This document shows positions 1 to 3,000 of a stretch of 64,000 bases of DNA, in pieces (positions within the stretch are counted from its first letter, which is position 1; each line of letters opens with the position of its first letter). The stretch is from assembly GCF_057098645.1 (NCBI RefSeq), contig NZ_CM169472.1; one strand, given 5' to 3'. The position numbers were made by a program.

Positions 1-3000
1 CGCTCAAAAAGCCAGTGAGTCATCACAAAGTGCAGCAGAAGCTGAATTGTCAAGAAAGACGGCAGAAAGTGCAGCCGGTAATGCAGCCAGGGATGCAACG
101 ACCGCAACAGAAAAAGCCCGGGAGTCAGCAGAAAGCGCACAGTCAGCGGAACAAAGCAGGATAGCGTGCGTATTCCGCTCTATTCGATCACGGATTGGCA
201 TCGAAGTCCGATCAGCGATTCGCATCCATTCGATCAACCGGGAACTTAACTTTTTCTACCGCTTTTTAACGCGTTTTTTCGCTGCTTTCCACTACCGGGG
301 GATTTTTCCTCAGTGACTCTCCCTGAAGGACCACTCGGTGTGAGTTATGTACCAGTCTGTCCAGGATGGCATCTGCTGTTGTTGGGTTCTCCATCAGACC
401 ATGCCATTTATCTACCGGGAACTGGCTTACCACTATCGTGCTGCTTTGTCCGTAACGATCCTCTATGAGCTCCAGAAGGTCATTACACTGGGCGTTACTT
501 AACTGTTCCAGCCCCAGATCGTCCAGGATTAGAACCTGTATTTTTTGCAACTGTTTCAGATATTTCAGCCAGCTGCCATCAACACGTCCCTGAGCCAGTT
601 GTTCCAGTAATCGCCCGGTTCTACAGTACCGGACGCTGTGTTTCTGTCGACATGCCTGTTCGCCCAGCGCATTGGCTATCCAGCTCTTGCCACATCCTGT
701 CGGACCGGTTATCAGCAGGTTTTTCCTGTGGGTTATGTAGTGGCCGTTCAGCAGTTCTCTCATCTGTTCAGCCCGCAGACCTCTTGAGGCCGGATAGCGC
801 AGCCCTTCCGGTGTTGCCTGGTATTTCAGGCCGGCATTTTTTCTCAACCGTGCCACACGGCTGTTTTCCCTGCTCAGAAGCTCGTCATCAACCAGCAGCG
901 TCAGCCTTTCCTCGAACGACAGTTCGTCGTAGGTCTGAGGCGTTTCCCGCTGCCGTATCAGGCTCCCGGCCATCGCCGGGAGTTTCAGTTGGGTCAGTTT
1001 GTTTAACAGGTTATCACTCATACTGTTGTTCCTTCTGTCAGTGGTAGTAGCCCGGACCACGCAGGTTTTCATGCTCTGAAGCATATGCCGGATGTTGTTC
1101 GCCCTGGCGGGATAATGGAAGCTCCAGGTTCTCCCGATGGTGACGCAGCAGATTGTCGATAAAGCGTCTGTCAGGGGCGTTATAGTGCAGGGCAACGTAA
1201 CAGGCCTTTTCCAGCCGTTCCGGGCCGTATTTTTTCTGAAGTGCCAGCAGCCCCAGAACTGCACGATAAGCCAGTTCCGGATGGGGTTTTGCCTTCAGCA
1301 TGGATTCAACCACCCGGCCTGTGGACGGGCCCGTACGTTTTCCCTGCTCGATCAGGCGTTCCGGTGTCCATGTCCCGTGCTGCCGGTGGCGCTCTGGCAT
1401 GTGAAGCGGATTGGTTGTGTGTTTATATTCATGTGTGCTGCGCGGATGTTGCGCCACACACTGCCCCTTGTGCCAGAGCTGTACCACCGACTGCCCCGCC
1501 TTCAGTGACAGACGCTGACCGACCAGTTCGTGTGGAACGGAGTACCAGTGACGGGCATATTCAACGTGGTAGTCAGGGCCAACCTTCACAGCTTTGTATT
1601 CCGTGTATTCATAAGGTGCCAGAGGCAGCGGAGAGAGTGCTGGCGCATCCAGTATGCGGAAGCGTTCTGCACGGGTTTGATTGCCGTACCCCTTCATTGG
1701 CCGGTTATTCATGTCTGTCAGTAACTCCCTAAGGCGCGCATTCAGCGCCCTGAGCGTGTGGAAGGTTTCATTACGGATGCGGGCAAGAAGCCATCGTTCA
1801 ACGATGAGGACGCCGTTTTCTGCTTTTGGTTTATCTTTAGGTTTGCGTGGTCGGGCCGGGATGATAACCGTGCCATAGTGCTCAGCCAGTGCCTGATAAC
1901 TGTCGTTGATGACAGGCTCATATCGATCGGCCTTTTTCACTGCGCTTCTGAGGTTATCGGGGATGAGCAGCTTCGGTACGCCGCCCAGGAAGGTCAGGCA
2001 ACGGCTGTGGGCATTTAACCATGACATCATGTCCTGACCTTCGCACGCTTCAACGTAGGTATAGTTGGACGCCCCCATTACGGCCACGAAGATTGCCACG
2101 CGGCGTATCTCACCGGTGTCCGGATTAATAACAGGAACCGTAGGACCACAGAAGTCGATAAAAAGCTTTTCGCCGGCACGATGCTCCTGGCGCATGGAGA
2201 GACGTCGCGTTTTTTTCCACTCCCGGTAGCAACGGCAGAAGTGCGAGTATCCCATCGCTTTGTTACCCGCCTGTGCCTTGTATTCCATCCACAACAGTTG
2301 CCGCGTCACACCTGGTTTTCTCATTTCCGTATCGAAGTACAACATGTCAGGCATTACAAGCTCTGATGCAAAGGTGTCTTTGGGCGGAAAAATGAGTTTC
2401 TCCAGCGTGTCATGGGATATATCAGCAGGTAATGGCCATGACAGAGAAGAGGCTTTGAAGCGGGCAAGAACCTCAAAAACGGTTGAGGCGCTGATGTGTA
2501 ACGTCAGTCCGATACAACGGTTAGTCAGCTTCTTGTCGAACTTGAGCTGAAGGATCTTAAAACAGGTTTCCATAGTGCTCCTGGATTTTCTCTTTCTGGA
2601 CATTGACGTCTCCACTGGTTTAAACACGGCAATGGAGACTGTGGTGAAAAGAGTTAATTCCCGGAGTGACTGGCAGGATGCCAATCAATGATCGGAAGCA
2701 TGCCAAATCGTGATCGATTGTGATGCCAAACTGTGATCGGAGATGGATGCCAAATCATGATCGATTCGAATGCCAAACTGCGATCGATTCAGATGCCATT
2801 TTGCAATAGCGGCGGAAGAAGCCGTAAACCGAATCCCCACCGTGGTGGGGCCACCCGGGCCAAAGGGGGAACCGGGTCCCGCGGGTCCTCAGGGGCCGAA
2901 GGGAGATAAAGGAGAGCGTGGTGACACCGGCCCTGTCGGGGCAACCGGCGAACGGGGACCGGGAGGAGATACAGGTCCGGCAGGTCCGCAGGGGCCGAAA

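Follow-up and report, generated by a model that had tools for sequence, protein, structure and literature searches.

A single transposition of an ISSso4 isoform into the stf-like gene of a lambda-like prophage that was probably already cryptic

Does an insertion sequence (IS) within a tail-fibre gene make a prophage defective, or can it be a hit in DNA that was decaying before it arrived? The question is raised by a stretch of 64,000 nucleotides from contig NZ_CM169472.1 of assembly GCF_057098645.1 (hereafter the window), which comes from an attaching-effacing-type Escherichia coli and begins inside a tail-fibre gene. The gene belongs to a lambda-like prophage that occupies the tRNA-Ser(UGA)/hya locus and carries tccP2, and it is interrupted by an element that encodes IstA and IstB. 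The preferred answer, to which a probability of about 0.93 is assigned, is that a single simple transposition placed an intact copy of a known element, ISSso4, in codon 237/238 of a 434-codon gene resembling the side-tail-fibre gene stf of lambda, and that this was probably a neutral hit in a cryptic prophage.

The element extends from position 167 to position 2805 (2639 bp; first bases TGCG, last bases TGCA) and has a copy of the hexamer ATAGCG on either side. Removal of positions 167-2811, which comprise the element and one of the two hexamers, fuses the flanks in one reading frame, and the restored sequence of 757 nucleotides matches the chromosome of E. coli C325 (NZ_CP124819.1) at 100% identity in a single ungapped piece, eight more genomes at 99.7-99.9%, and Shiga toxin (Stx)-converting phages, including BP-4795, at 96-97% continuously over the junction. 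In an explicit alignment of the junction, C325 reads CAGG-ATAGCG-GCGG with one ATAGCG, and the window exceeds it here by the IS and 6 bp, no more and no less. Collinearity between the two sequences extends to either side of the element and takes in tccP2, the espV remnant, tRNA-Ser and the hya operon, and over the next 49.9 kb they are separated by 20 substitutions and no gaps (a difference of 0.04% in flanking DNA). On the strength of this two-sided collinearity and near-identity, the C325 locus is the orthologous, true empty site, within the same prophage at the same tRNA-Ser/hya position, and not a paralogue.

The boundaries of the element were compared with those of nine other copies: eight that are 100% identical to the IS of the window (L002-L009, junctions at 61 and 2699) and one on plasmid pCT (L010 41986-44624). 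In all nine, conservation breaks off exactly at TGCGTATT... on one side and at ...TTTTGCA on the other, which makes these ends invariant across ten copies, and each copy is flanked by a direct repeat of its own (5, 6, 5, 6, 7, 4, 7 and 5 bp for L002-L009, respectively, and 6 bp for pCT). The 6-bp duplication of the window is within the element's normal range of 4-7 bp. The pairing of ATAGCG at the two ends is more than chance, because the hexamers abut ends that are identical in nine other independent copies and because exactly one ATAGCG is found at the uninterrupted site in the sister genome C325. Among the target duplications of the ten copies, no obvious target consensus is apparent.

The element is assigned to the IS21 family on the basis of sequence traits, all of those that could be tested having been found. 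Its transposase, IstA, is of the IS21-type DDE (rve-type) class, is encoded by an intact reading frame of 511 amino acids that matches the IS21 transposase profile NF033546, and contains an rve domain and a Mu-transpos_C_2 domain; istB follows directly downstream on the same strand, with a 16-bp gap between the istA stop at 1038 and the istB start at 1021. The coordinates of both genes agree with those given in identical copies by the Prokaryotic Genome Annotation Pipeline (PGAP), which records istB as WP_001282653.1. The ends, TGCGTATT...TTTTGCA, align as imperfect terminal inverted repeats of the form 5'-TG...CA-3', and within them the motif ATGCCAAAnnnTGATCG, a putative binding site of IstA, is repeated five times directly and twice inverted; with up to two mismatches, no further copy of this motif was found in the 64-kb window outside the element ends. 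The length of 2639 bp and the duplication of 6 bp are those of an IS21-family element (approximately 2-2.7 kb, with 4-8 bp of target duplicated). Thus, a sequence-only reading of the locus, which had described a 2639-bp element encoding IstA and IstB between ATAGCG copies at 161-166 and 2806-2811, is confirmed from the sequence; its assignment to the IS21 family is borne out by the scores of NF033546 and NF038214, its placement of the ends, length and 6-bp duplication by the same termini in nine other copies, and its claim that a previously intact tail-fibre gene was disrupted by the continuity of the restored reading frame with C325 and the Stx phages.

The IS matches at 100% identity across exactly its positions 1-2639 at many unrelated chromosomal and plasmid loci. 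Of 5426 complete E. coli genomes, 225 contain it at full length, with as many as 34 places in a single genome, and it is therefore evidently active. It is called here an ISSso4 isoform, a name derived from the PGAP label 'IS21-like element ISSso4 family' on the proteins that identical copies encode, from the listing of ISSso4 among the accessory modules of plasmid pCT (PMC6361801), and from 99.7% identity to the pCT element. The latter (NC_014477.1, 41986-44624) is alone of its family in the 50 kb examined of that plasmid; it aligns with the IS of the window over the full 2639 bp without gaps, has identical ends and a 6-bp duplication, and encodes an IstB with the same accession, WP_001282653.1, as the copies that are 100% identical to the window's IS. 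The difference is seven point mismatches, the window carrying a variant that is common in poultry-associated E. coli.

ISEc12 was considered as a name and rejected. It has been reported in tssM of the ST131 strain EC958 with a 5-bp duplication (PMC10711316), and in that respect is similar as a gene-disrupting IS of E. coli with a short duplication, but it is another element at the DNA level: no full-length copy flanked by tssM is among the IS matches listed, and in most E. coli genomes the matches are limited to short fragments at 94-97% identity. Such a fragment, apparently an old IS21-family remnant, is all that is present of the IS in E. coli genomes numbering well above a thousand, O157:H7 strains EDL933 and EC4115 among them; it is unannotated, approximately 100-270 bp long, and corresponds to the istA-proximal part (window 2506-2775, IS coordinates 2340-2609).

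The interrupted gene is best identified as the counterpart of lambda stf. Its intact product in C325 has 434 amino acids, belongs to the tail-fibre class of PHROGs, and begins with a PF08400 domain ('prophage tail fibre N-terminal', residues 1-133, 231.5 bits) that is followed by an alanine-rich segment, collagen-like Gly-X-Y repeats at approximately residues 250-358, and a PF06820 domain at residues 360-423. The order of genes in C325 is gpJ, a Lom-family gene and the fibre gene, which is the position of stf in lambda, after J and lom; and the first 160 residues are 76% identical to orf-401 of lambda, the N-terminal part of Stf. Beyond the shared N-terminal domain and position, the two systems differ: lambda Stf has a gp37-like tip where this protein has collagen-like repeats and PF06820, and the downstream partner is Tfa in lambda and an 82-residue PF06820 protein here. 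The stf allele of laboratory lambda PaPa and the allele of the window are both natural loss-of-function alleles of a side-fibre gene, the former by a frameshift and the latter by insertion of an IS.

The effect of the insertion on the fibre protein can be predicted from the reading frames. The total insert of 2645 bp (2639 plus 6) is not divisible by three, and the upstream frame continues for 49 codons into the IS before a stop at 314-316. Since the start of the duplication, nucleotide 708 of the fibre gene, coincides with a codon boundary, the predicted product consists of residues 1-238 followed by 49 IS-encoded residues. The sequence-only reading had called the element 'inserted in-frame', which is correct for its excision in silico and incorrect for the insertion itself. 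An ATG at 2770, within the end of the IS, opens a 210-residue hybrid reading frame that continues into the 3' fragment (2770-3402); no promoter resembling those of sigma-70 was found in positions 1-3500 on either strand, and thus there is no positive sign that this frame is expressed. The insertion may have a polar effect on the 82-residue reading frame downstream.

In IS21, IstA works on a reactive end-to-end junction and IstB captures the target. By extension of this established mechanism to the present element, the IstA DDE transposase would bind the repeated motifs of both ends of one 2639-bp ISSso4 copy and the IstB AAA+ ATPase would capture target DNA for strand transfer. On the preferred reading the copy transposed into codon 237/238 of the stf-like gene of the lambda-like prophage, with staggered cleavage of the target and subsequent repair of the gaps producing the 6-bp duplication of ATAGCG. 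The truncated fibre is predicted to keep the tail-attachment domain and part of the alanine-rich rod, without the collagen-like shaft and the C-terminal domain, and any particle that was made would have no side fibres. The target prophage being most likely cryptic already, such an insertion would probably have been selectively neutral.

The left junction (positions 1-420 of the window) had no match in the 5426 complete E. coli genomes; an exact 39-mer of the junction was not found in GTDB representative genomes or in metagenomes of the Joint Genome Institute (JGI); and in an exact-sequence look-up the two hybrid proteins were on record in no public assembly. As the junction is absent from all collections searched, the insertion appears to be private to one strain as far as public data go, and this absence, together with the perfect duplication and the identity of the IS to other copies, marks it as apparently recent. 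The event is of an ordinary and already known type, a recent, strain-specific insertion of a known IS, and its significance hardly goes beyond annotation: an active IS21-family element has moved once more, into a lambdoid prophage in decay. Given its absence from these collections, the junction could be of use as a marker for this strain.

Whether the prophage was disabled by the insertion is a separate matter. Laboratory lambda has a frameshift in stf and no side fibres, is fully viable, and would gain from side fibres only faster adsorption (PMC12617516), and in a genome-wide knock-down of lambda genes lom, stf and tfa were scored as non-essential for plaque formation (PMC10695390). Because the interrupted gene is the likely counterpart of stf and stf is dispensable in lambda, we infer that the insertion alone would not make the prophage defective. 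The prophage of C325, which has no IS in its fibre gene, retains only 174 bp of the large terminase gene, as a remnant, and has frameshifts in the integrase gene and in one other gene. Since that copy decayed without the IS and the flanking DNA of the two strains shows a difference of 0.04%, the prophage of the source strain, by extension from C325, was probably cryptic before ISSso4 arrived, and the insertion was probably a selectively neutral one in decaying DNA.

The conclusion of the sequence-only reading, that destruction of an essential tail fibre by the IS turned a functional prophage into a defective one, is improbable by comparison. The fibre gene is clearly truncated, inducible Stx phages such as BP-4795 retain an intact homologue, and the C-terminal part is unlike that of lambda Stf, such that dispensability in lambda may not carry over; but the gene follows J and lom, as stf does, in a region that lambda does not need for plaques, and the terminase and integrase genes of the IS-free prophage of C325 had already decayed. 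What stands is that the prophage is probably defective, by the decay of terminase and integrase seen in C325; the step from insertion to defect is unsupported. A broken side-tail-fibre gene is no proof of a dead prophage, for which the terminase and integrase genes are the informative ones.

Several points weigh against the account of a neutral hit by ISSso4 in a cryptic prophage. Dispensability of side fibres was demonstrated for lambda only, and the shaft and tip of the present fibre differ, the C-terminal two-thirds of the protein being unrelated to lambda Stf. The window starts inside the fibre gene, and the state of the source-strain prophage outside the window is deduced from C325. In C325 the prophage lies between two tRNA-Ser loci that are not the same, mtfA/tRNA-Ser at its integrase end and tRNA-Ser/hyaA at its tail end, which points to a rearrangement of the chromosome involving two lambdoid prophages; the C325 prophage may thus be a recombinant of two, from which the source strain could differ. 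Finally, the name ISSso4 has two sources, the labels given by PGAP and the annotation of pCT in a single paper.

Less probable again than an insertion that disabled the prophage is one that was not neutral, either as a selected 'locking' step in the domestication of the tccP2-carrying prophage or through a function of their own gained by the N-terminal stub or by the reading frame at 2770-3402. The form of this proposal in which the insertion itself creates a function, with the stub mounted on tails or a collagen-like fragment expressed from the ATG at 2770, can draw on the in-frame start of the 210-residue hybrid and on the retention of the PF08400 domain, and it is given hardly any credence, as neither strand of positions 1-3500 shows a sigma-70-like promoter, public assemblies record neither of the hybrid products, and there is no argument for selection. 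A reading of the hexamers as coincidental or artefactual, in which the IS would have entered through recombination of one IS copy with another, within some larger element or through a misassembled repeat, is effectively refuted. ATAGCG does occur 32 times in the window on both strands combined, and IS copies are classic sites of misassembly; but the extra DNA compared with C325 is precisely the IS and 6 bp, with contiguous and syntenic flanks, the termini agree with those of nine independent copies, and just one copy of the IS is present in the window to recombine with.

Table 1. Positions of the features of the interrupted locus and its surroundings (window coordinates unless C325 is named)
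Feature	Position	Strand	Remarks
5' fragment of side-tail-fibre (stf-like) gene	1..166	+	Codons ~183-238 of 434; start lies left of the window; identical to C325 L001 9001-9166
Left target-site duplication, ATAGCG	161..166	.	Codons Ile237-Ala238 of the fibre gene; empty site of C325 has a single copy
IS21-family element, called ISSso4 isoform	167..2805	- (genes on minus strand)	2639 bp; ends 5'-TG...CA-3'
Terminal inverted-repeat region, istB-proximal end	167..236	.	Motif ATGCCAAAnnnTGATCG in two inverted copies, 185-201 and 209-225
istB, helper AAA+ ATPase	266..1021	-	251 aa; PF01695, 205.7 bits; NCBIfam NF038214 'IS21-like element helper ATPase IstB', 257.8 bits (cutoff 200)
istA, transposase with DDE/rve core	1038..2573	-	511 aa, intact reading frame; NCBIfam NF033546 'IS21 family transposase', 284.7 bits (cutoff 160)
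Terminal inverted-repeat region, istA-proximal end	2677..2805	.	Five direct copies of the motif at 22-24 bp spacing, 2678-2786, plus a terminal partial copy
Right target-site duplication, ATAGCG	2806..2811	.	
3' fragment of stf-like gene	2812..3402	+	Collagen-like Gly-X-Y repeats and PF06820 C-terminal domain; severed from the start codon
Small downstream tail-fibre reading frame	3424..3672	+	82 aa; PF06820; context only
tccP2 (Tir-cytoskeleton coupling protein)	3799-4833	-	344 aa; tandem 141-bp (47-aa) proline-rich repeats
IS3-family orfB	5047-5937	-	
IS3-family orfA	5934-6260	-	
espV effector pseudogene remnant	~6592-6984	-	Annotation of C325, position transferred by alignment
tRNA-Ser(UGA)	7079-7166		Marks the prophage/chromosome boundary; adjoins the espV remnant
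Prophage of C325: frameshifted integrase, terminase remnant, bracketing tRNA-Ser loci	L012 9371-10538 and 30999-31172; L001 12262-12349		

A second IS, of the IS3 family, occupies 1310 bp (5005-6314) between tccP2 and the espV remnant, with ends TGAACCGCC...GGCGGTTCA and a target-site duplication of GCT (5002-5004 and 6315-6317). It is an independent insertion that C325 lacks; among the full-length matches listed, the best have 98.2% identity and belong to a multicopy IS of O157:H7 genomes, and the element is presumably IS629-like. The tccP2 allele of the window has one 141-bp repeat fewer than that of C325, which encodes 391 amino acids. At approximately 47364-48454 of the window, on the minus strand, lies rutA, which is frameshifted in the annotation of C325; the window aligns with C325 there without gaps and therefore presumably carries the same frameshift.
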